The notes beneath the pieces were generated by a model. It saw only the letters and a program-made list of their open reading frames with translations, did not search any database and was not told where the DNA came from. A program made the position numbers and the translations under genes. Positions 19,781-31,438 of a stretch of 64,000 nt of DNA are shown here, piece after piece. The stretch comes from Planctomycetota bacterium (GTDB lineage: Bacteria > Planctomycetota > UBA8108 > SXIK01). The first letter of the stretch is position 1. Each line of letters opens with the position of its first letter. Location: NCBI GenBank assembly GCA_965223845.1, contig CBDCXR010000004.1, forward strand, positions 928,001 through 992,000, read 5' to 3'.

Positions 19781-22165
19781 TCACTGGCAGCTCACGTTCG
19801 TCGCGCATCCGAGAGCCGCGTCCACCGGGAAGCAGCCGTGGCCTTGCGCAAGACACGCCTCGCCTTGGAAGAGGAAGCGCGCGAGCGTGACGAGGTCGGC
19901 GATCGACCCCGCACCGTCACCCGACACATCGACGACCGCGAGGGTACCTTCCGGGCTTGCGCACGGGGGCACCGCGGCATCGCCGAGAATGAGGAACCCG
20001 GGGAAGAGGAGCCGGACACCGCAGATGATGTCGCTGATGTTGCGCTCACCGTCTTGGTTGCAGTCGCCCGCGAGCTGGCTGACGAGCTCTGGACACGGGT
20101 CGCCGAAGGCCTCCTTCGCCGCGATCGTCGCGGTGAACGTCGTACCGTCGGCGCCGTCGTTGATCGCATCGAGGCCGCCCGTCGCGAGGTTCCCCGCGCC
20201 GTCCGGATCGATCGCGAAGTCGACGATATCACCGACGGCCAAGGTCGTGTCCACCGCGTAAGGAACGGCGTTCCCGTCGGTGAGCATCTCCGCGATCTGC
20301 GTCCCGTTGACGAAGATCCGGCAGACGGTGCCGTCGCCGCCCGCGCTCGCGTTGTTCGCGACGCCGGAGATCTGAACGAGCCCGTCGTGCGTGCTCGTCC
20401 AGCGCCGCATCGCCCAGTGGACGTCGGGGTCCGTCTGGCCGTTCGCCGCCGGATGCCCGCCGGCGGCGCTGATCTCGGTCCACGGACCGTGGCTCACCGG
20501 CGCGCCGTTCGCGAGAAGGTCCCACTTGGTTCCGTCCCAGTGGTTCGCGGACGATTTCCAGCCTCCGACTTCCGGGTCGGCGCTGACGACGTCGCTTCCG
20601 TCGTTGAGGAAGAGGACGAAGTCACTCGTGTCGAACTGGCCGTTTTGGTTCTCGCCGTCGTCGCGGGCGTCGTAGTAGCCGTACTCCCAGCCGTTCTCGC
20701 CCTGAGTTCCCGTCGCCGACCAATCGGCCTGGGAATCGGCGATGGTCTGGAGGTTCGCGGCTTCGCACGGAATCTCGGGGTTGATCGCGAGGAACGTGAA
20801 GGATCCGTCCGCGCCGTCCGACGGATTGCCGTCGACGCCGACCGGTGTGAGGGCGAGGTCGACGATCGAGTTCGCCGAGAGATTCGTGTAATGGACGCGA
20901 TGCACGCCGGCCGGCGAGTTCGTCGCCACGCGGTCGATCTCGACGCCGTCGATGAAGAGGATCGCCGTCGTTCCTTGACCGCCCGTATTCTGGGCGCGGA
21001 CGGCCCAGTTGATTCCCACCGTCTGCTCGGCCGGCTCCGCCGGCGCCTGGTAGCGGCGGATCACCCAATGCTCGCCGCCGTTGTTGTCGCCGTTCGGGTG
21101 GACGAAGTCCTCGCGTAGGGTCGTCCAGGGCGCGTTCGTCGGCACGAGACGCCACTGTCCGTTCGGACCCTGATCCGCGCGCCAGTGATCTTCGAAGACG
21201 AACGGCATGAAGTCGCCGACCGCGTAGCCCTCTTCGGCATCCTCGCCAGGCACGTAGTAGCCGTTCGTCCAGCCGTTCGCGCCCTGCTCGCTGGAGAAAT
21301 CGATGGCCGAGTTCGGGTCACCGTCGCAGGCGTCGCCGTCGCCGTCGCCGTCGAAGTCGGCCTGGCCGGGATTCGCCACGCCGGGACAGTTGTCGCAGGC
21401 GTCGCCGAGACCGTCCGAGTCGGTGTCGGCCTGGTCGTCATTGCAGATCGTGGGGCAGTTGTCGATCGTGTCTGGCGTGCCGTCGCCGTCGGAGTCGAGG
21501 ATTTCGGTGTCCACCCAGAGCCGATTCCGCGAGCCGTCGCAGCCGTCGGTGAGGTCGGCGTCGGGGCCTGGGCTGAGGACGAGATCGACCACCTGGCCGG
21601 CGCTGAGACTGTAGACGAATCCCTTCGTGAAGCCCTCGCCGTCAGCGGCGCCGATCGAGACATCGTCCTCAATGACGCCGTCGACCAAGACGATGCCGCG
21701 AACGCCGTTGCCGCAGTTGACGTTCGCCTTCGACATCGACCAGAAGATCGTGACGTCGCCGGTGTGGTCGCTGGTCCAGCGCCTCACCGTGAGGTGGATT
21801 CCCCACGGGTCGGCGTTGTTCGAACCGTTCGGGTGGGTGTCCGTCTTGTTCATGAAGGTCCACGGCGCGGACGCTTCGCTCGTGAGATCGTAGACCTCAC
21901 CCGTCCAGTGGTTCCCGTCGGGTGCGACTCCGTCGGCCGGATCGCCGCGCGTAAACGGAATGAACTGCGCGGCATCGACCGACGCATTCACGTATCCGAA
22001 CGACCACTCGCCTGGCGCCGGTACCTCCGCCTGATTCTGCGGCGCGTCCCAGCCCGTCTCCGAGTCGGCGATGATGTCCGCCCGAACCGGAGTTGCGACG
22101 AGCGCGACCGCTAGCGCGACTCCGAGACCGGCGAGACGAAACAGATTTCGTGTACCCATAGTCAT
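19781..22165 (-). CDS. Secreted protein: 3 copies of the unnamed Trp-rich domain, TSP3 repeats, variant dockerin-like C-terminus
   Basis: Start ATG 22165 after GGAGG. Signal peptide ...ALVATPVRA. TSP3 repeats DSDGDGTPDTIDNCP...DACD. C-terminal LAGDCNQDGERNISDII...VDVSGDGAGSIADLV. Confidence 0.88.
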   Translation of the reverse strand: MTMGTRNLFRLAGLGVALAVALVATPVRADIIADSETGWDAPQNQAEVPAPGEWSFGYVNASVDAAQFIPFTRGDPADGVAPDGNHWTGEVYDLTSEASAPWTFMNKTDTHPNGSNNADPWGIHLTVRRWTSDHTGDVTIFWSMSKANVNCGNGVRGIVLVDGVIEDDVSIGAADGEGFTKGFVYSLSAGQVVDLVLSPGPDADLTDGCDGSRNRLWVDTEILDSDGDGTPDTIDNCPTICNDDQADTDSDGLGDACDNCPGVANPGQADFDGDGDGDACDGDPNSAIDFSSEQGANGWTNGYYVPGEDAEEGYAVGDFMPFVFEDHWRADQGPNGQWRLVPTNAPWTTLREDFVHPNGDNNGGEHWVIRRYQAPAEPAEQTVGINWAVRAQNTGGQGTTAILFIDGVEIDRVATNSPAGVHRVHYTNLSANSIVDLALTPVGVDGNPSDGADGSFTFLAINPEIPCEAANLQTIADSQADWSATGTQGENGWEYGYYDARDDGENQNGQFDTSDFVLFLNDGSDVVSADPEVGGWKSSANHWDGTKWDLLANGAPVSHGPWTEISAAGGHPAANGQTDPDVHWAMRRWTSTHDGLVQISGVANNASAGGDGTVCRIFVNGTQIAEMLTDGNAVPYAVDTTLAVGDIVDFAIDPDGAGNLATGGLDAINDGADGTTFTATIAAKEAFGDPCPELVSQLAGDCNQDGERNISDIICGVRLLFPGFLILGDAAVPPCASPEGTLAVVDVSGDGAGSIADLVTLARFLFQGEACLAQGHGCFPVDAALGCATNVSCQ

Positions 22166-22542
22166 TGCACCTCCCAGCGCAACATGAGCGTCAACCCTCT
22201 GCGGGAGCCAAGGAGCGCCCGCTTTCCTCGCTACGGGCGCTTCTGCGCCCCCGTTCATTGTTCCTAGCCGCGAGCACACGAGCCGCTCTCGTCTCCGGTC
22301 ACTCGGATGGAGAACGTGCTCGATGAGGCGCGTTGGCGACGTGAATCGTGGATGAATCCACACCCTGAAGCTGCTCGGCGAATCCTCCGAGCGTCCACTT
22401 TCGACCCGTCGATTGTCATCATGGCGTCCGGGGATTTCTACAAAAAGGGCCGGCCGCGTCCGTTTTCCGCGCGCGTTTGGGGGCGGTACGGGTGCCGGTC
22501 GTGATCGGACTCCCGGCGGAGTCGTCTTGCGCCAGGTCCGAC

Positions 22543-24540
22543 TCACTCCGCGGCGAGCGGCTCGCGGTGAGGACGATTTGCCTCGTAGCCGGCGATGCGG
22601 TCGCGGACGGTCTCGGCGAGCGCGTCACCGGACCGCTGCTCGGCGATGGCGAGAGCCCGCCGGGCAAAGCGGAGCGCGGCTGCGAAATCACCCGCCTCGG
22701 CGTACGCCGCGCCGAGCGTGTCGAGGGGCCCGGCCGAGGAGTAGCGCGTGGCGCTCGCCGCCGTCTCGGCGTGTCGAACCGCTGCGCGACCGTCGCGAAT
22801 CGCCGCGTCGGGATGGGTCGCGAGCAACCAAGCGAGATCGTTGGCGGCGCGGTGAAGATCGGCTCTGAGTCGAAGGGCGCTTTCGTACTCGGCGATCGCA
22901 GCTCGGGCGTCGCCCGATCGGCGGAGCACTCCTCCGAGCGCGTAGTGAACGTCCGGTTGCCCGCCGTACTTCTCGAGTGTGGTGCGGAGGTGCGCGACCG
23001 CGGCGGCGCGATCGCCGCTTGCCTCGAGCGCGCCGCCGAGGTCGATCACCGCCGGAACGAGCTGCGGGTGGTAGGAGAGCGCCGCACGGAAGGACGACGC
23101 CGCGGCAAGATGATCGCCGCCTCGGACCGCGATCTGTCCGAGCAGATGGTGAACGTCGGCGAGCCGACGATTGCGTGCCGTCCCTTCGGGCGACGCCGCG
23201 CTCGGCGGGCCGGGATCCTCGGCGAGAAACTGCTCGAGGATCGCGCGCGCGTCCTCCGGGTACTCGCCCTCGAGATACGTGCGCGCGAGTGAGATCACGT
23301 TCGACACGAACGCGTCACCCGCCCAAATTCCCGGGAACGGCACCGAGAGATCGCGGAGCTCCTTGCCGCTCGCCGCGAGAGTCTTCGCATCGGCGAGAAT
23401 CTGGTCCTTTTCCACCGCTCCCTTGTAGACGACGGCGAGCCGTCGCTCGGCGTCGAGGAGGAAGCTCGACGGGAGCGGGAGCTGTCGCTCCCGGTAGATC
23501 GCAGCCTGCTGCAGGCCGTCGAGCGTCTCGACGAGAGCTTTGGGACCGATCCCCGCCGCGAACTCGACTCCGAGACGAGCGAGCATCGCGCGCGGTTTCG
23601 CCGGGTCGGTGGGCTCGCGCAGGCCGTCGACGTTGAGCGCGAGGAGAGCAATCCCCGCGGCCTCGAGCTCCTTCGCGGCCCCGGCGAGTGCGCGGAGCTC
23701 GACCGCGCAGGGACTGCACCAGGTTGCCCAGAGGAGAAGGAGCGTCGGTCGCGCCGGGAGGTTCGCGAGGGAAATCTCCCGACCGTCGAAACTCTCGTAG
23801 GCTCCGTCGACCTTCGGGCGATCCGACAGCCGGATGCGCGCCGCGTCGGTGAGCGGCGCTCCTTTTGGCGTCGATGAAGCTAGAGGAGAAGGCGGCTGGT
23901 TCGGCTCGACGGCTTCCGCTACTCCCGTCCCTTCCCGCAGACGGTGACGCGATCCGATCGCGACGCCGGTGAACGTCTCGCGGCGTACCGAGCCGGGCCA
24001 GCGGACGACGACGGACTCGACGCCTTCGGCTTCGCCCGTTCCGAAGTAGAGCCACTTTGTCGACTGACTGAGGTAGCCGTCGCCGGCGACCAGCGTCTTC
24101 GCGCGTTTCGCGGGCTCGACCCCGGCGAGCTCGATCTCGACGCGTGCACCGATCGCGTCGCGATTCGTTCCGCGGGCGGGATCGCCGAGGAGTCGGAGCG
24201 CGACGAATCGTCCGCGCGGCGCGGCGTCGTTCCGGAGGAGTCTCACCCGCGGACTCGTGCGTGAGGCGATCCAGAGGTCGACGTCACCGTCGCGGTCCCA
24301 ATCGCTCAGAGCGACCGTACGGCTGTCGTCGATGTGATCGAGTCCCGACGCCGCGGAGACGTCCGCGAACCGCGTGGCGCGCGTGTTGAGAAACGCGCAG
24401 TTTCGTTCCTTTCCGCTGAACGAGCGGCCCTTTCGAATGAGCTGCGCGAGCTCCTGCCACGCGTCCATGTAGCCGTCCAGAGGATCGCCCGCGTCCTCGC
24501 CGGCAGGGGTTTGCGACACGACCTGTCGCCAGTAGAAGCT
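22543..24540 (-). CDS. C-terminal part of a probable UGA-readthrough protein: last FG-GAP blade, ASPIC/UnbV domain, TlpA-like redoxin (WCSPC), TPR repeats
   Basis: DWDRDGDVDL, RDAIGARVEI...GDGYLSQS...YFGTG...VVVRWPG, LWATWCSPC and TPR-like helices (NDLAWLLAT, LDTLGAAYAEAG). The frame is open immediately after the upstream TGA, and there is no RBS before GTG 24519. Confidence 0.85.
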   Translation of the reverse strand, partial: SFYWRQVVSQTPAGEDAGDPLDGYMDAWQELAQLIRKGRSFSGKERNCAFLNTRATRFADVSAASGLDHIDDSRTVALSDWDRDGDVDLWIASRTSPRVRLLRNDAAPRGRFVALRLLGDPARGTNRDAIGARVEIELAGVEPAKRAKTLVAGDGYLSQSTKWLYFGTGEAEGVESVVVRWPGSVRRETFTGVAIGSRHRLREGTGVAEAVEPNQPPSPLASSTPKGAPLTDAARIRLSDRPKVDGAYESFDGREISLANLPARPTLLLLWATWCSPCAVELRALAGAAKELEAAGIALLALNVDGLREPTDPAKPRAMLARLGVEFAAGIGPKALVETLDGLQQAAIYRERQLPLPSSFLLDAERRLAVVYKGAVEKDQILADAKTLAASGKELRDLSVPFPGIWAGDAFVSNVISLARTYLEGEYPEDARAILEQFLAEDPGPPSAASPEGTARNRRLADVHHLLGQIAVRGGDHLAAASSFRAALSYHPQLVPAVIDLGGALEASGDRAAAVAHLRTTLEKYGGQPDVHYALGGVLRRSGDARAAIAEYESALRLRADLHRAANDLAWLLATHPDAAIRDGRAAVRHAETAASATRYSSAGPLDTLGAAYAEAGDFAAALRFARRALAIAEQRSGDALAETVRDRIAGYEANRPHREPLAAE

Positions 24541-24543
24541 TCA
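24513..24543 (-). promoter_or_regulatory. In-frame UGA plus putative bacterial SECIS element
   Basis: mRNA reads UGA-AGCUUCUACUG (11 nt)-GCGACA GGUCG UGUCGC. This is a perfect 6-bp stem whose spacing and CAGGUC core match the E. coli fdhF SECIS. Confidence 0.65.
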
Positions 24544-26499
24544 CAAGTCGCCCGTGTCGTCGGGCTGTGTAATGAACCCGTTCGTGACGACGAGATCTTC
24601 CCAGCCGTCTGAGTTGAGATCGACGAACTTCGATCCCCAGGCCCAACGTCCGATGCTGACCGCGCTCGCGACGCTGACGTCCTCGAACGTACCGTCGCCG
24701 CGGTTTTGAAAGAGCGAGTTTCCCCGCGCATGCCGGCGGAGTTGCTTGCGGAATTCGCCCGAGCCGCCGGCGTGAAATCGGCTCTGCGTCGTGATGCGTC
24801 CCCCGGCAGAGGAGAACATGTTGCTGACGTAGAGGTCGGGGCGGCCGTCGTTGTTCGGGTCGCCCCAGCACACGGACATCCCCGGAGAGATGTCCTCGAC
24901 GCCCGCGGTCGCGGCGATGTCGCGAAAGTTCCCGCCGAGATTCTCGTAGAGGTTGTTGCGACCGAAATCGTTCGCGACGTAGAGGTCGAGATCGCCGTCG
25001 CCGTCGAAATCTTCCCACGCCGCCGCGTAGCTGAAGCGGCGATTGTTCTCGTCGAGACCGGCGCTCTTCGTCGCGTGGCGAAAGCGCCAGTTGCCGTCGT
25101 TTCTGAGGAGTACGTTCCGGCCGCCGTTGTTCGCATCGTGGTAGGGGACGGGACGCGCGAAGACGAGGTGACGATTCACTTTCGGCCGGCGGTTGTAGCA
25201 GCAGACGAATAGGTCGAGGTCGCCGTCCGAGTCGTAGTCCGCCGCCGCGAGCGAGTAGGGAATCGCCGCGGGGATGATCTCGGCCGAGCGGACCGCGAAC
25301 CTTCCCGTGCCGTCGCCGCGGCAAAGGTAGACGCCGCTCGAGACTCCGACCGCGAGGTCCTGGTGGCCGTCGCCGTCGAAGTCGACCGCGACTGCGCCGT
25401 GGGTGGAGTCGAGGCAGTTGACTCCCGATTGGGCGGACACGTCGCGAAGCGTGCCATCGGGCGACTGCAAGTAGAGCAGATTCGGCAGCCCACCGGGCTG
25501 ACAGACGTAGACGTCGTCGCGGTCGTCGCCGTTGAAGTCGGCGACGGCGAGGCCCTGCCAGCCGCCGATGTCGAGACCGTGCCGCGTCTCGATGCGCGCG
25601 GTCCAGTGATCGATCCCCGGGAGAACCTGAGTCGCGTAGCTCGGCGCGTTCGCGAAGACCGCCTCGGTACAGTCGGCGAAGAGTGGAGCCGGGCCTTTGC
25701 CGACCGTCTCCTCGTAATCGACGAGACGGAGCGCGGTGAGCCGGGGACGCTCCGCATCGGCGAGCGCCCAGTGGTGTTCCCACGTTGAGCGAACCTGGAG
25801 GAGGCCGCCCGCGGTTCGTCCGCTCGCTTGGAAATAGCTTTCCGCGCGGGCCGTCGCGCCCGAAATCTCCGTGCGGAAGAGCTTGCTCTTTACGTGCACG
25901 TCCGCGTCGATCGGCCACAACTGCGCGACGCCGGAGAGCACGGACGCGAGGTCCGTAGCGGCGGCCGGGGCGGTGTCGGCCGATCCGCGGCGAACTTCGA
26001 AGGCGGCGTCCGTGAATGCGACTGAGAGCACCGGCGGCCGGAGGGCGGTCACCTCGTAGGACGGCGCGACGAGACCCTGGACCTCGTCGGATCCCACGGC
26101 GCGTCCGCTCGTAGCGAGCGCCTCGAGCTCGTGGAGGCGATCCGCGATCGAGGCGCCCACGACTTCGCTCGTCCACCCGTCTCGATCGGCGGGTTCCGCC
26201 GGCGGTGCGTCCGGCACGCCGGAGATCACGGCGGGTGGCTCGTCGGGCGCGGTAGCCACCGACGTCTGGTTTGCCGTTCCCGGCGACGGCGCCGTCGCCG
26301 GAGAGGGGTCCGAGGACGGCGAGCACGCGGACCCGAAGATCGCCCAGGCGGCTAGGGCGATGGTCGCGAGACCGCTTCGGATCGCCACCGGACGGCGCCA
26401 GCCCGCAAACGCGCGCCCGACGGCTCCGGAAGGTTCTCTATTCCCTTGGAAAAGCACAAATCGAATCATAAGATTGCGATCCGACGGGTCGGTCGACAT
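24541..26499 (-). CDS. CRTAC1-like FG-GAP beta-propeller lipoprotein, N-terminal part (probably continues through UGA to 22543)
   Basis: Lipobox-like AIFGSAC. Repeated FG-GAP motifs DFNGDDRDDVY, DFDGDGHQDL, DYDSDGDLDL, DFDGDGDLDLY, DPNNDGRPDLY and DLNSDGWEDL. Ends NGFITQPDDTGDL-TGA. Exact start uncertain. Confidence 0.88.
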   Translation of the reverse strand: MSTDPSDRNLMIRFVLFQGNREPSGAVGRAFAGWRRPVAIRSGLATIALAAWAIFGSACSPSSDPSPATAPSPGTANQTSVATAPDEPPAVISGVPDAPPAEPADRDGWTSEVVGASIADRLHELEALATSGRAVGSDEVQGLVAPSYEVTALRPPVLSVAFTDAAFEVRRGSADTAPAAATDLASVLSGVAQLWPIDADVHVKSKLFRTEISGATARAESYFQASGRTAGGLLQVRSTWEHHWALADAERPRLTALRLVDYEETVGKGPAPLFADCTEAVFANAPSYATQVLPGIDHWTARIETRHGLDIGGWQGLAVADFNGDDRDDVYVCQPGGLPNLLYLQSPDGTLRDVSAQSGVNCLDSTHGAVAVDFDGDGHQDLAVGVSSGVYLCRGDGTGRFAVRSAEIIPAAIPYSLAAADYDSDGDLDLFVCCYNRRPKVNRHLVFARPVPYHDANNGGRNVLLRNDGNWRFRHATKSAGLDENNRRFSYAAAWEDFDGDGDLDLYVANDFGRNNLYENLGGNFRDIAATAGVEDISPGMSVCWGDPNNDGRPDLYVSNMFSSAGGRITTQSRFHAGGSGEFRKQLRRHARGNSLFQNRGDGTFEDVSVASAVSIGRWAWGSKFVDLNSDGWEDLVVTNGFITQPDDTGDL

Positions 26500-26812
26500 C
26501 GGGTTCTCACCGCGTACTGAGTTTCATCGCGAGAGCGTGCTCTCGACGGGTCGAAGTCCGGCGGCGAGGCGGCGCTTTCGCTGCGTTTCGTCTCGGGCTC
26601 GGGTGCGTGGCAAGCAGGCGGACCGTCGCTCTCGGAGGATCGTGAAGAGAAAACCACCGTGCGGAGTCGGGGCTGCGAACGCAGGCTGTACTTCGTCTCG
26701 CCGGGGCGCTGTCGCTCGGCTCGATGCGGCCGCCTCGGTTCCGGCCATCCCGGCATCCGCGACGGCGCGGCGATCGGCGGGGATTACCGTTTCACCACAA
26801 GAATCATCGTTC

Positions 26813-29800
26813 ATGCTCGAGCTTAGACGACCTCGCGGGCAGTTGCGACGGCGTACCCAACAGATTGTGTCCGGCGGTCGGCGGCGGTCGAACGGGAGAC
26901 GATCTCTCTGGTTCGTACTCGGCGTGCCCGCAGTGGTGCTCGTGAGCTTCGGTTCTCGACCGGTGCACGCAGATATCATCGCCGACTCGTCCGCCGATTG
27001 GTCGACCACCGGGACTCAGGGCGCCGGCGGCTGGTTTCACGGGTACTACAACCGCTCCACCGACGGGAACGGAACTTACCAGACGGGGGACTTCACGGCG
27101 TACACGAACTCCGCCGGCGCGGGAGGGGGAGCGGTCAGCCCCGACGGGAATCACTGGACCGGCTCGGCGTGGGACCTTCTCGACGAGGCATCCGGACCGT
27201 GGACGTTCTCCGCGTCCGAGGCGACCCATCCGAACGGGACGAACAACGGCGACGAGCACTGGACCATCCGGCGGTGGGTCAGCGACTTCGACGGCCCCGT
27301 GACGATCGGCTGGTCGACCGCGAAGTCGAACACGAACTGCGGGAACGGCGTCGGGGCACGCCTCTACTTGAACGGAGCTCTCATCGATTCGGCGGCGATC
27401 GGCTCGGGCGATGGGACCGGTGTCACCCGAGAGCTCGACCGCACGATTTCTGCCGGTGACGTCATCGATCTCGCGCTCACGCCTACGGGGCCGGACGGCT
27501 CGCCGAGCGATGGCTGCGACGGCTCGATCAATCGGCTTTGGATCGACGATCTCGTGAGCGATCTCGACGACGACGGGGTTCTCGACGGAGACGACAATTG
27601 CCCGCGCGATCCGAATCCCGGGCAAGCGGACGGCGACTCCGACGGCGTCGGCGACGTCTGCGACAACTGCGTCGACGAGCCCAATGAAGACCAGCGCGAT
27701 CGCGATCGGGACGGACTCGGCGACGCCTGTGACGAACCGCTGACACCCGATCATTTCGACGTCGTCATCAGTGAGATCCACTACAACCCGGACGACGGGA
27801 GCGAGCTCGAGTTCGTCGAGTTCTTCAACGCGGCCGACGCGGCGCTCGATCTAACCGGCTGGTCGATGACGGGCGCGGTGCGCTTCGTGTTTCCCGACGG
27901 AGCGTCGATCCCGCCGGGCGGGCACGTCGTCGTCTGCCGGAATTCCGGTGTGCTTTCGAGCACTTTCGGCCTCGATCGCACCGCGCTCTTCGAATGGGTC
28001 GCGGCGGCGCTCGACAACGATGGGGAGGAAGTCGTCCTCCTCGACGCGACGGGAGCGATCGTCGATTCCGTGCGCTACGACGATTCCTTGCCGTGGGATA
28101 TCGACGCCGACGGAGACGGCCCCTCGCTGCAGCGACTCTGCGTCGAAGGGGAATCCGAGAATCCGCAGAACTGGCTCGCAGACATCGGAAGCCCGCCGAC
28201 GCCGATGGGGGAAGTTCAGGTGCCGCAGTGTCCGCCGCCCGTTCTCCCGCCGCCCGAGATCGCGATCAACGAGATCTACTACCATCCGCCGGGGGACCAG
28301 GAGGAGCGCGAGTACGTCGAGCTCACCAACACCACGGCAGCGCCGATCGACCTTCTCGGGTACTGCTTCTCGCAAGGGTTCAGTTTCTGCTTCGATACGA
28401 GCACGGTGATCGAGCCGGGCGAGTTTCTCGTCGTTTGCCGCGACGAGGCCGCAGTGAGGAGCGCGTTCGGGATCACGAATACGATCGGGAACTTCGTCGG
28501 GCAGCTCTCGAACAGCGGCGAGCGCATCACGCTCCTCAAGCCGGATGGCACGCTCGCCGATTCCGTGCGTTACCGCGACGAGGACAAATGGAATATCGCG
28601 GCCGATGGGCTCGGATTCAGCCTCGAGAAGTACGTTCCGGACGCGACTTCGGATCAGCCGGCGAGCTGGACGGACAGCGGCGCCGCCGAAGGGGGCGGCG
28701 GTGGAGGCTGGGCGACGGCATCCGTCCGCGGGACCGCGACGAGCGATCGCGTCTACTTCTACATCGAGGGGCCGGGCGAGTTTCTCATCGATGACGTCTC
28801 GCTCGTCAACATCGCCGATCCCGATCGAAATCTGCTTCCGAACGGAGACTTCGACGGCGGAATTGCCGGCTGGAGCGGAAACGGGAACCACTCGGGGAGC
28901 ACCTACAACACCGAGAACGAAGCCCTCCACGTCATCTCGAGCGGAACGGGTACCGGGTCGTCGAACGCGGTTCGAGTCGAGGCGATCGAGGCGCTCGAGC
29001 GCTCGAACGTCACCTACGAGCTGAAGTTTTCGTACTTCCACGTCTCGGGGAGCAACGAGCTGGTGGCTCGGCTTTCGAGCTCGACGCCGAGTCGGGGGAT
29101 CTACTGGGCCCTCGTTGGAGGCGGAGGCGCGGGGAGTGTCAGTCCTGGTGCTCCGAACAACGCGCTGAGCACTGTCGTCCCGCCGTTCGCGACCGGCATC
29201 GGTCGCTTCCCGCGGGAGCCGTTTTCCGACGAAGCCGTCTGGCTCACGACGAAAGTCATCGGCGAGGCGACCGAGGTGGAGCTCGTCGTCGACCTCGACA
29301 CCGGTACGCAGGAGCTCGAGATGTTCGACGACGGCGTATCGAATGACGGAATCGCGGGCGACGGTGTTTACGGAGCGTCGGTCCCGCCGCAGCCGCACCA
29401 CTCGGTGGTGACGTTCAAGATCGTCGCGACGGGGCCCGGCGGACAGCGAACGAGCCCACCGCGCACGGATACGGAGCCCGTGCACGCCTATTACGTGAGC
29501 GACTACCAGCCGCCGTCGGATCTCCCCGTCTACACCATGATCCTTCCGACGAGCAGCCCGAGGTCATGGATCGCCGGTCTCAACTGCTCGACCTACCGCT
29601 CTTGCTCCTTTGCGGTCGGAGGAGACGTCTACTACGACGTCGGCATCCGTCGCCGCGGCGGAAGCGTTTGCGGCGACGGCGACGTGATCAAGAAGTACCT
29701 CAAGATGAAGTTCAACCGTGGGCACGAGTTCAAGGGCGTGCGGCGGATCAACTTCCAGAGCCTCTGGACGGACAAGTCGCTGATTCGGGAGAACCTCGCC

Positions 29801-31438
29801 TGGGACGTTTTCGAGGAGACCGGGAATCCCGACTGTTTCCACGATTTCGTTCGGCTTCACGCGAACGGCGATTACTTCGGCCTCTACGCGGAGTACGAGC
29901 ACCCGGACGCACGTTTTCTCGCGCGAAACGATCTCAATCCGGACGGCAACCTCTACAAGGCGACGGCTTCACGCGAGCAGCGAGACGGCTGGACTTACGA
30001 GAAGAAGACGAACGAGAGCACGGGAAATGCAGACCTCGTCGACTTTATTCACACGATGCACGACATCCCGACGAACCAGCTCGTGAGCTTCTTCGAGACG
30101 AACACCGAGCCGGACGTCATCATCGAATACCAGATGGCGCAGATCCTCACGAACAACCGTGACTATCCGCACAAGAATCACTACCTCTTTCACGACACCG
30201 AGAAGGGAGTCTGGTTCCCGACGGCGTGGGACATCGATCTCGTCTACGGAAAGCGCTGGGACGGGTCGTTCGAGGGCGTCCTCAACGACAAGATGGACAA
30301 CCCGGGCATCACGCCGTGGTACACGACGACGGTGCGCGGCGGGGGGATCGGAAACCATCTACTCGACAAGTTCTTCTCCCAGGCCGGGACGCACTTCCGC
30401 CGGGCCTACATCGTCCGGCTGTGGAACGCGATCCAAGAGAAGTACACGCTCGAGTACTACGACGGTCGCATCGACGAGTATCGCGCGCTTCTGTTCGAGG
30501 AGCAGCTCGAGGATATCGACGAGTGGGGCCGGTCTCGGGCGTCTGCGAACGACCCGACGGCTCCGGCGGAATTCGAGCCGAATCTCGAGCGCGTCCGCGA
30601 TCATGTTCGCATCCGCCGGAATTACCTGATCAACTACCTCCGGAATACGGAGGGCTTCGCGGGGAGCGACCGGCTGAAGATCACCGAGGTGATGTACAAC
30701 CCCCTCGGAGACGACCAGAGCGAATACATCGAGTTTTGGAACAACTCGGGTCGCTCGATCGACATTTCCGGCTGGTCCGTCAGAGGAGTCGGCGTCGAGA
30801 CCTTCACCTTCCCCGGCGGAACGGAAGTCGCGGACAACGAGGTGATCATCCTCGCGCGCAACCCCGCTCACTTCGTCGGAGTCTACGGCAATGTTGCGCG
30901 GACCTTCGGACCCTACACCGGGAACTTGAGCAACAGCGGCGAGGTGCTGCGTCTCCGAGACGACGGCGCGGGCTACGATGCGACCGTCGACTACCTCGAG
31001 TACGGGACGAGCGACCCCTGGCCGGGAGAGCCCGACGGGCTCGGTCACAGCCTCGAGCTGTTCAACGTCAGCGGAGACATCGACAACGACCGAGCGGAGA
31101 ACTGGCGCTCGTCCGTCTCGTTCGGCGGCTCGCCCGGCTTCGTTCATTTCGAGGGACAAGACGTGCCGCACTTCCGTCGCGGCAACTGCAACAACGATCA
31201 ACGGGTCGATATCACGGACGCGCTGGCGATCCTTCTCTATCTTTTCGCCGAACGGGAAGAGCCGCGTTGCATCGACGGTTGCGACGTGAACGGAAACGAG
31301 GGCGTCGCCATCGACGACGCGCTCGCACTCCTTCAGTATCTGTTCACGTCGCAGGGCTTCGTGATTCCGGCGCCCGATCCCGGCGACTGCGCACCGGCGC
31401 GAGAAGGCTTCTGTCAGCAGTCGAACTGCGTTTTGTGA
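26813..31438 (+). CDS. Secreted protein: unnamed Trp-rich domain, TSP3 repeats, lamin-tail domains, CBM-like module, CotH-like kinase, LTD, dockerin-like tag
   Basis: Signal region ...VLVSFGSRPVHA. LTD starts VVISEIHYNP, IAINEIYYHP and LKITEVMYNP. CotH motifs RRRGGS, KKYLKMKFN and NNRDYPHKNHYL...WFPTAWDIDLVYG. C-terminal FRRGNCNNDQRVDITDAL. Start set at in-frame ATG 26813 (the ORF opens at 26360). Confidence 0.88.
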   Translation: MLELRRPRGQLRRRTQQIVSGGRRRSNGRRSLWFVLGVPAVVLVSFGSRPVHADIIADSSADWSTTGTQGAGGWFHGYYNRSTDGNGTYQTGDFTAYTNSAGAGGGAVSPDGNHWTGSAWDLLDEASGPWTFSASEATHPNGTNNGDEHWTIRRWVSDFDGPVTIGWSTAKSNTNCGNGVGARLYLNGALIDSAAIGSGDGTGVTRELDRTISAGDVIDLALTPTGPDGSPSDGCDGSINRLWIDDLVSDLDDDGVLDGDDNCPRDPNPGQADGDSDGVGDVCDNCVDEPNEDQRDRDRDGLGDACDEPLTPDHFDVVISEIHYNPDDGSELEFVEFFNAADAALDLTGWSMTGAVRFVFPDGASIPPGGHVVVCRNSGVLSSTFGLDRTALFEWVAAALDNDGEEVVLLDATGAIVDSVRYDDSLPWDIDADGDGPSLQRLCVEGESENPQNWLADIGSPPTPMGEVQVPQCPPPVLPPPEIAINEIYYHPPGDQEEREYVELTNTTAAPIDLLGYCFSQGFSFCFDTSTVIEPGEFLVVCRDEAAVRSAFGITNTIGNFVGQLSNSGERITLLKPDGTLADSVRYRDEDKWNIAADGLGFSLEKYVPDATSDQPASWTDSGAAEGGGGGGWATASVRGTATSDRVYFYIEGPGEFLIDDVSLVNIADPDRNLLPNGDFDGGIAGWSGNGNHSGSTYNTENEALHVISSGTGTGSSNAVRVEAIEALERSNVTYELKFSYFHVSGSNELVARLSSSTPSRGIYWALVGGGGAGSVSPGAPNNALSTVVPPFATGIGRFPREPFSDEAVWLTTKVIGEATEVELVVDLDTGTQELEMFDDGVSNDGIAGDGVYGASVPPQPHHSVVTFKIVATGPGGQRTSPPRTDTEPVHAYYVSDYQPPSDLPVYTMILPTSSPRSWIAGLNCSTYRSCSFAVGGDVYYDVGIRRRGGSVCGDGDVIKKYLKMKFNRGHEFKGVRRINFQSLWTDKSLIRENLAWDVFEETGNPDCFHDFVRLHANGDYFGLYAEYEHPDARFLARNDLNPDGNLYKATASREQRDGWTYEKKTNESTGNADLVDFIHTMHDIPTNQLVSFFETNTEPDVIIEYQMAQILTNNRDYPHKNHYLFHDTEKGVWFPTAWDIDLVYGKRWDGSFEGVLNDKMDNPGITPWYTTTVRGGGIGNHLLDKFFSQAGTHFRRAYIVRLWNAIQEKYTLEYYDGRIDEYRALLFEEQLEDIDEWGRSRASANDPTAPAEFEPNLERVRDHVRIRRNYLINYLRNTEGFAGSDRLKITEVMYNPLGDDQSEYIEFWNNSGRSIDISGWSVRGVGVETFTFPGGTEVADNEVIILARNPAHFVGVYGNVARTFGPYTGNLSNSGEVLRLRDDGAGYDATVDYLEYGTSDPWPGEPDGLGHSLELFNVSGDIDNDRAENWRSSVSFGGSPGFVHFEGQDVPHFRRGNCNNDQRVDITDALAILLYLFAEREEPRCIDGCDVNGNEGVAIDDALALLQYLFTSQGFVIPAPDPGDCAPAREGFCQQSNCVL

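Follow-up and report, generated by a model that had tools for sequence, protein, structure and literature searches.

In a 64,000-nucleotide stretch of Planctomycetota DNA (contig CBDCXR010000004.1; hereafter the window), two adjoining minus-strand open reading frames (ORFs) appear to form a single gene, interrupted by a UGA codon that is very probably decoded as selenocysteine (Sec), and this gene would belong to a new, large selenoprotein family that spans several phyla. The recoding mechanism is the known bacterial one; what is new, as far as we searched, is the family itself, its presumed extracytoplasmic place, the many copies per genome and the non-Cys residues found in its homologues. 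In the model that we propose, the two ORFs are one gene, and UGA653 would be decoded as Sec by the SelB/tRNA-Sec system. Decoding would be directed by a minimal bacterial selenocysteine insertion sequence (bSECIS), with a 6-bp stem and a GGUCG loop, lying inside the coding sequence 11 nucleotides (nt) after the UGA. Sec would then open a helix that belongs to an insert in a CRTAC1-like FG-GAP propeller/ASPIC module; Sec would also be the ancestral state of the family, repeatedly replaced by non-Cys residues, after which a CxxC motif in the redoxin domain of the same protein would decay.

The two ORFs, at 24541-26499 (652 amino acids, ATG start) and 22543-24519, share one frame and are separated by a single TGA (24543-24541). 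This TGA is codon 653 of a read-through product of 1318 residues, ...NGFITQPDDTGDL-U-SFYWRQVVSQTP..., in which ...TGDL directly precedes U653 and SFYWRQVVSQTP follows it. A first-pass annotation, made from the letters of the window, had described these same-frame ORFs with one TGA and a hairpin 11 nt downstream, and we confirmed its coordinates and sequence. The true stop of the recoded gene (22545-22543) is also TGA, the commonest stop in the genome, where it closes 1926 of 3081 long frames.

The UGA is conserved far beyond this gene. TGA occupies the same alignment column in 8/8 close paralogues of this genome, in all 21 orthologue loci fetched from relatives, and in 42/42 close loci from named assemblies. 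The last set covers Planctomycetota (including Pirellulales, Fuerstiella, Mariniblastus and Phycisphaerae) and Verrucomicrobiota (including Roseibacillus and Akkermansiaceae), and also takes in one 'Paracoccaceae' metagenome-assembled genome (MAG) and one 'uncultured bacterium'. TGA is likewise present at the site in 15 metagenome loci and, once two loci of unpublished genomes are set aside, in 9 of the 19 Acidobacteriota loci. The family is thus found in Planctomycetota, Verrucomicrobiota and Acidobacteriota, and it is multi-copy, with eight paralogues in this genome and several copies per genome in relatives. Moreover, when residues 301-900 were searched against the window's genome and 40 relatives (41 genomes), the best 80 matches all contained TGA (79 one, 1 two) and none contained TAA or TAG; in 71 genes, a single TGA lies between long open frames. 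No TAA, TAG or frame change at the site was detected among the homologues examined, every interrupted form having TGA in that column, so that the conservation check proposed in the first-pass annotation came out in favor of a coding UGA. Locus L054, a duplicate of the window, was dropped, and L180 and L186 (unpublished genomes G090 and G193) were excluded from the hairpin control, the covariation, the trees, the contrasts and the Acidobacteriota selA and CxxC counts; both were in the database searched for neighbors, where they gave no hit, and none of our claims depends on them. These data bear directly on one alternative, a pseudogene or a one-base sequencing or assembly error, which has the single in-frame stop itself in its favor and nothing more. 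Because TGA recurs in one column of every close homologue examined, across independent assemblies and phyla, with both halves intact and conserved, we regard this alternative as refuted.

The codons that follow the UGA vary in the manner of translated sequence. Among 70 distinct sequences, the three codons after TGA have third-position entropies of 1.35, 1.14 and 1.10, whereas five of their six first and second positions lie at 0-0.37, the first position of the second codon (F/V/L) standing at 1.38. The Ser codon after TGA switches between AGY and TCN, and the peptide SF[FY]WRQVV is common to TGA forms and uninterrupted homologues. Since the variation is mainly at third positions, the comparison indicates that the codons after the UGA are translated. 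This result must be set against a second alternative, in which translation stops at the UGA to give a 652-residue FG-GAP protein, and coupled re-initiation, for example at GTG661 (24519-24517), yields the remainder, with the hairpin serving as a coupling or pausing element. A split is what gene callers give, as the first-pass annotation had anticipated, and the GTG sits in the 3′ arm of the hairpin. In public protein sets, furthermore, the N-terminal half has 7948 matches, and the 120 best all end exactly at the UGA (...DL); these relatives, NCBI records among them, are named 'VCBS repeat-containing', 'FG-GAP-like repeat-containing' or 'hypothetical'. We read their common end as a sign that annotation systematically cuts the family in two. 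From the UGA to GTG661, codon variation is concentrated at third positions, and the encoded peptide is that of uninterrupted homologues; no start codon was found between the TGA and the three codons that follow it; and variants have GCG, TTG, CTG or ACG in place of the GTG. In addition, the UGA lies inside the propeller, whose last blade would sit on another chain, and the hairpin shares its geometry and GGUC loop with the SECIS of an FdhA-like gene in the same genome (both described below). Taken together, these points make two separate products highly improbable.

We then return to the single recoded gene and to the hairpin that would direct its decoding. An 11-nt spacer (AGCUUCUACUG) separates the TGA from GCGACA-GGUCG-UGUCGC (24529-24513), whose loop begins 17 nt after the UGA and which is the minimum-free-energy (MFE) fold of a 39-nt stretch, at -9.3 kcal/mol. 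The SECIS of E. coli fdhF is, as the first-pass annotation states, a 17-nt minimal element at 11-nt spacing. Four bSECIS criteria are set out in Fig. 2 of PMC13188914: a loop of 3-9 nt with G in loop positions 1-2, a stem of 4-16 bp, a UGA-to-loop distance of 16-37 nt and an MFE <= -7.5. The hairpin falls within all four, with a 5-nt loop that starts with GG, a 6-bp stem, a distance of 17 nt and -9.3 kcal/mol. The exact pattern of TGA, spacer and hairpin occurs once in the window and in none of 100 shuffles.

Comparison across the family further revealed that the hairpin covaries. Standard pairs fill 92.9% of the pair cells over 87 TGA sites, a level matched by 0/500 shuffles and compared with at most 69% in slid registers; changes on both sides occur in four of the six pairs (31 cells in all), and one stem pair runs through AU 34, GU 27, GC 15, CG 3, UA 2 and UG 1. 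Some compensatory pairs alter amino acids (Q to R with V to A; Q to H with S to A), and the wobble base of the Arg codon sets the opening base of the S/P/A/T codon (ninth after TGA), and thereby the choice among Ser, Pro, Ala and Thr. Six TGA forms are off register, L237 and L245 (see below) among them; each has another hairpin, in which one of the two leading loop bases is G. Sense-codon homologues served as a control for the encoded peptide. All six pairs are present in 78 of 94 TGA forms; of 37 homologues with a sense codon at the site and the same WRQVV peptide, only 2 have them all, the 37 control rows including three without the WRQVV motif (L230, L243 and L255) that a loose filter let in; the loop GGTCG occurs in 71/94 and 5/37, respectively. 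Coding for WRQVVS thus does not explain the hairpin, and compensatory changes of the kind sought in the first-pass annotation are present. Collectively, the comparison indicates that the UGA and the hairpin are under selection, the hairpin as RNA.

Several loci depart from the common form of the site. In a sub-branch represented by L075:1942-1989, L226, L228 and L232, another peptide follows the TGA (..LExVGRR..), and when the last three are aligned the TGA is off by one or a few codons; this sub-branch has its own GGUC-loop hairpin, for example GGCGUC-GGUC-GACGCC. The distant TGA forms L237:2168-2215 and L245:4159-4206 read DG-U-[ST]-C-LWRAVV, a U-x-C motif, and their hairpin has a CGUGAC loop, with a stem difference between the two loci that is compensated. 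Two family matches carry two TGA codons (G021:C170:5245-6771 and G002:C64:12120-13775) and may represent either double-Sec forms or copies that have been damaged. Even when the gene was translated in the wrong frame, into an Arg-rich sequence, it matched homologous loci at 32-50% identity, from which it follows that the DNA is strongly conserved; off-frame matches arise easily in G+C-rich genomes.

The genome contains the Sec machinery for which the first-pass annotation had asked, namely tRNA-Sec (68.1 bits, anticodon UCA), selA, selB and selD, all over curated cut-offs. It also offers an internal control, since an FdhA-like molybdopterin enzyme gene (G000:C4:4984549, minus strand, L271) has a classical CSRA-U-HAPTV Sec site followed, 12 nt after the UGA, by the hairpin GUCGCC-GGUCU-GGCGGC, with the same geometry and GGUC loop as the hairpin studied here. 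We also scanned the genome crudely, looking inside long frames for a TGA followed by a 9-14 nt spacer and a 6-bp stem with a GGTC loop, and obtained 13 places: six paralogues of the CRTAC1-like family, the FdhA-like gene, one further candidate and five others, which we judged to be chance matches in Arg-rich off-frames. The further selenoprotein candidate lies outside the window (G000:C4:6836567, minus strand) and reads ...GTAIAATW-U-HLCHNGVVYAS, which is UxxC-like; open frames of 153 and 254 codons flank its TGA, which is followed after 14 nt by a hairpin with a GGUC loop. In Acidobacteriota, 8/8 genomes that carry TGA forms have selA, as do 7/9 that carry sense forms alone, a test that is weak though its direction is the expected one, and the two genomes without selA carry only sense forms. 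Among 39 further assemblies with TGA forms, selA is over cut-off in 35. Many of the genomes G022-G040, G009 and G025 have a second, weaker tRNA-Sec-like match of 47.5-54.4 bits, just over the Rfam cut-off, next to a main tRNA-Sec of 63-82 bits.

To place the UGA in the protein, we examined domains and a structural model. Pfam detects FG-GAP_3/FG-GAP in five stretches of the read-through protein (FG-GAP_3 145.8 against a cut-off of 26.9), AhpC-TSA/Redoxin at residues 904-1030 with WCSPC at 927-931, and TPRs at 1111-1291. The TGA precedes both the UnbV domain and an FG-GAP-like blade (DWDRDGDVD, about residues 733-741). We modelled residues 290-1060 with AlphaFold2 from an 80-row alignment, and the resulting model has a predicted local distance difference test score (pLDDT) of 93.2 and a predicted template modelling score (pTM) of 0.93. 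It places the UGA inside the propeller, with one blade and the ASPIC domain after it, and U as the first residue of the helix 364-374 (model residue 364). The start of a helix is a typical place for a reactive Cys or Sec. With the UGA inside the propeller, two polypeptides would cut the fold, and Pfam and the model agree with the first-pass annotation that the break falls inside a CRTAC1-type architecture. At the N terminus, a lipobox-like FGSAC (C59) follows a hydrophobic stretch; some orthologues have clearer lipoboxes and others only a hydrophobic anchor. The sequence suggests that the protein is probably exported and possibly lipid-anchored. The lipoprotein proposed earlier is a candidate reading, based on FGSAC and on the motifs of some orthologues; other orthologues have no lipobox.

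Uninterrupted homologues provide a view of what takes the place of U. In the 120 best full-length ones, which share the same four-part architecture, the residue opposite U is D in 53, E in 22, S in 14, A in 9, L in 6, N in 5, C in 3, G in 3, H in 2, and R, M and I in 1 each, and the Cys-bearing clade has a TGA form as its sister. A 247-row tree requires 11-12 changes between the TGA and sense states. When 75 representatives were placed on a tree with eight motif-less paralogues as the outgroup, the basal branches were taken one after another by TGA forms, with sense forms nested among them; these trees were made with FastTree or 'quick' IQ-TREE and have some weakly supported nodes, and L127 and L131, which had passed a loose motif filter, group with the outgroup on the rooted tree. 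By parsimony, Sec looks ancestral to the motif-bearing family, with many losses to non-Cys residues.

The raw counts for the redoxin domain vary with the state of the UGA. Its CxxC is intact in all 77 TGA forms in which the motif could be aligned, whereas of 120 sense forms 12 keep both Cys, 25 have a single Cys left and 83 have neither. Sense forms placed beside TGA forms on the rooted tree retain the CxxC and older sense clades have lost it, a pattern that fits loss of Sec followed by decay of a jobless CxxC. We see an about even chance that U653 is redox-active and is kept reduced, outside the cytoplasm, by the protein's own TlpA/ResA-like CxxC domain. A second Cys, Cys701 (ERNC), is Cys in 69 of 94 TGA forms and in 9 of 153 others. 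These associations also bear on an alternative in which Sec is inserted and its chemistry is secondary, the UGA and SECIS acting as a selenium-dependent throttle on the ratio of truncated 652-residue to full-length protein. Bacterial Sec decoding is generally inefficient, non-Cys, non-redox residues replace Sec in many homologues, and eight paralogues with the same device make a common control conceivable. Conversely, Sec starts a helix in the model, the CxxC is intact in all 77 TGA forms and mostly lost without TGA, and Cys701 is enriched in TGA forms, though phylogeny confounds that enrichment. We consider such a throttle unlikely.

Several observations weigh against a Sec-decoding UGA served by a CxxC partner. 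Taken singly, the hairpin is no more stable than shuffles (z = -0.83; 37/200 fold at least as well), and a search of Rfam matched no family; a lone hairpin in G+C-rich DNA being no better than chance, the comparative data are the sole source of its significance. The classical Sec/Cys signature is weak: the first-pass annotation had looked for Cys or a sense codon in uninterrupted homologues, and sense codons are indeed found at the site, but Cys is nearly absent (3/120) and the remaining residues differ widely. Nearly every genome of the window's class has the Sec trait (selA in 40/41 genomes, tRNA-Sec over cut-off in 38/41), and co-occurrence there consequently discriminates nothing. Furthermore, selA was not found in 3 of the 39 further TGA-form assemblies and is a fragment at a contig end in one more. 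Among the three, which are MAGs that may be incomplete, one has selB and tRNA-Sec and one has selB only; in the third, G277 (3.1 Mb), selA, selB and tRNA-Sec were not found. Finally, the link between CxxC and TGA is confounded by phylogeny: four contrasts on supported branches gave two in the same direction and none in the opposite one (p ~0.5), and independent contrasts are too few for the coupling to be statistically established. The earlier suggestion that the protein's own CxxC could serve the Sec draws indirect support from the counts in TGA and sense forms. For Cys701 as the partner, contrasts were 1.8 same, 1.5 opposite and 3.8 without difference (p ~1), and we keep this residue as a lead only.

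The assembly that showed no Sec component is one of two points that speak for read-through of the UGA without Sec, in which a near-cognate tRNA (Trp, Cys or Arg) would insert a standard residue under stimulation by the hairpin. The other is that the site is unconstrained in uninterrupted homologues (D/E/S/N/A/G/C), so that many residues may be tolerated. Such read-through would not explain why about 94 diverged genes of at least three phyla retain TGA in place of a sense codon, and the hairpin fits the bSECIS consensus and matches the FdhA-like SECIS. Moreover, selA is present in all 30 TGA-form genomes checked in the window's class and Acidobacteriota, and retention of the CxxC in all TGA forms argues for a redox-active residue. 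We hold this alternative to be very unlikely. The conserved TGA, the translated codons after it and the covarying hairpin instead support the single Sec-containing protein of 1318 residues put forward in the first-pass annotation, and on these comparative grounds we infer that the inserted residue is Sec. As a wider proposal, which we advance tentatively and rate a little below an even chance, the family would be an uncatalogued, ancestrally Sec-dependent class of extracytoplasmic enzymes in which a propeller Sec is serviced by a fused TlpA-like CxxC, and from which redox-dead descendants remain where Sec was lost to non-Cys residues.

Table 1. Coordinates in the window of the proposed recoded gene and its parts.
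Feature	Position	Strand	Basis
Proposed single recoded gene, 1318 codons plus TGA stop, UGA653 read as Sec	22543..26499	-	Frame, translation, homologues with a single TGA flanked by long open frames
In-frame UGA, codon 653, proposed Sec codon	24541..24543	-	Column conserved in homologues; first helix residue in the model
11-nt spacer coding S-F-Y-(W), in frame after UGA	24530..24540	-	Codon-position entropy
bSECIS-type hairpin GCGACA-GGUCG-UGUCGC, 6 bp, 5-nt loop	24513..24529	-	Fold, covariation, sense-codon control, consensus criteria
Candidate signal peptide with lipobox-like FGSAC, residues 34-59, Cys59	26323..26400	-	Read off the sequence
FG-GAP beta-propeller, about residues 300-760, UGA inside, last blade downstream of UGA	24220..25602	-	Pfam, model, PDB match
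Cys701 (ERNC), candidate partner Cys of Sec	24397..24399	-	Enriched in TGA forms; independent contrasts give no support
UnbV_ASPIC domain, residues 782-852	23944..24156	-	Pfam, 51.3 bits, cut-off 23.4
TlpA/ResA-like redoxin domain, residues 904-1030, CxxC = C928, C931 (23707-23718)	23410..23790	-	Pfam, fold match
C-terminal TPR repeats, about residues 1111-1291	22627..23169	-	Pfam

The gene is flanked downstream by a 921-residue protein (19781-22546, minus strand) that overlaps its stop codon by 4 nt and has a weak TSP_3 match, and on the other side by a 1692-residue plus-strand protein (26360-31438) with three lamin-tail domains, CotH and a weak dockerin match. A gene with such lamin-tail-type (LTD-type) repeats adjoins orthologues in several Planctomycetota and Verrucomicrobiota loci and is the sole recurring neighbor. 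No redox partner gene was found adjacent among the neighbors of the gene and its orthologues.

If the family is genuine, eight genes here and several per relative would increase the selenium use estimated for Planctomycetota, Verrucomicrobiota and part of Acidobacteriota, and its share of the selenoproteome may be the largest of any family in the first two phyla. According to PMC13188914, current selenoprotein discovery relies on Cys/Sec pairs. The family would break that assumption and expose a blind spot of such searches; its evolution would run opposite to the textbook pattern, which would explain why Cys/Sec-pair searches miss it. An extracytoplasmic Sec on a CRTAC1-like propeller, with a CxxC kept or lost alongside it, would also offer a testable lead to the chemistry of the fold.

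The first-pass annotation had placed the protein outside the classical selenoprotein families, and comparison with known systems agrees. No NCBIfam selenoprotein model passes its cut-off for the protein (NF041054 scores 23 against 300), and neither FG-GAP, ASPIC nor CRTAC1 appears in Table 1 or the accessible text of the 2026 catalogue of 119 prokaryotic selenoprotein families (PMC13188914). We found no literature linking selenocysteine with FG-GAP, ASPIC, UnbV, CRTAC1 or VCBS proteins in the sources available to us, and Table S9 of PMC4807772, which gives Planctomycete selenoprotein candidates, could list the family. The closest structural relative is CRTAC1: the best PDB match is murine CRTAC1 (9etn_A, E 6.7e-25, template modelling (TM) score 0.71 on target, 16% identity), and both FG-GAP repeats and the UnbV_ASPIC domain are over Pfam cut-offs. 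In a sequence comparison with the PDB, however, alignment to CRTAC1 is confined to the FG-GAP repeats and leaves out the Sec region; the helix-bearing insert DL-U-SF[FY]WRQVV is found neither in CRTAC1 nor in distant paralogues, and CRTAC1 itself, which is no selenoprotein, lacks both the redoxin and the TPR part. To our knowledge, this animal relative has no settled biochemical function.

The decoding signals resemble those of fdhF and FdhA-like genes in the in-frame UGA, the short hairpin with a GGUC-type loop at 11-12 nt and the selA/selB/selC/selD set. Unlike formate dehydrogenase, the protein here is unrelated to molybdopterin enzymes, has no UHxP motif and has rare Cys homologues. Its redoxin part resembles TlpA and ResA, with an AhpC-TSA/Redoxin domain, WCxPC at a helix N-terminus (C928/C931; model helix 640-658) and a fold that matches ResA and TlpA (2f9s_A, TM 0.84; 1jfu_B). 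The NCBIfam equivalog cut-offs are missed (TlpA NF047696 49.5 against 230; ResA NF002854 33.4 against 170), and the redoxin here is one domain of a 1318-residue protein whose proposed substrate would be its own Sec. Redoxin selenoproteins listed in Table 1 of PMC13188914 (UGC-containing TlpA; ResA-like WAxxUGC, NF041054) share the extracytoplasmic thioredoxin fold in Sec-using bacteria. In those proteins Sec replaces a Cys of the CxxC, whereas here the CxxC is all-Cys and Sec stands about 275 residues upstream, in the propeller. A precedent for the residues at the site is fmdB, in which, according to PMC4807772, Sec aligns with a non-Cys residue and glycine homologues occur in Planctomycetes; in the family described here, by contrast, non-Cys replacement is the rule (117/120) and goes together with loss of the partner CxxC.

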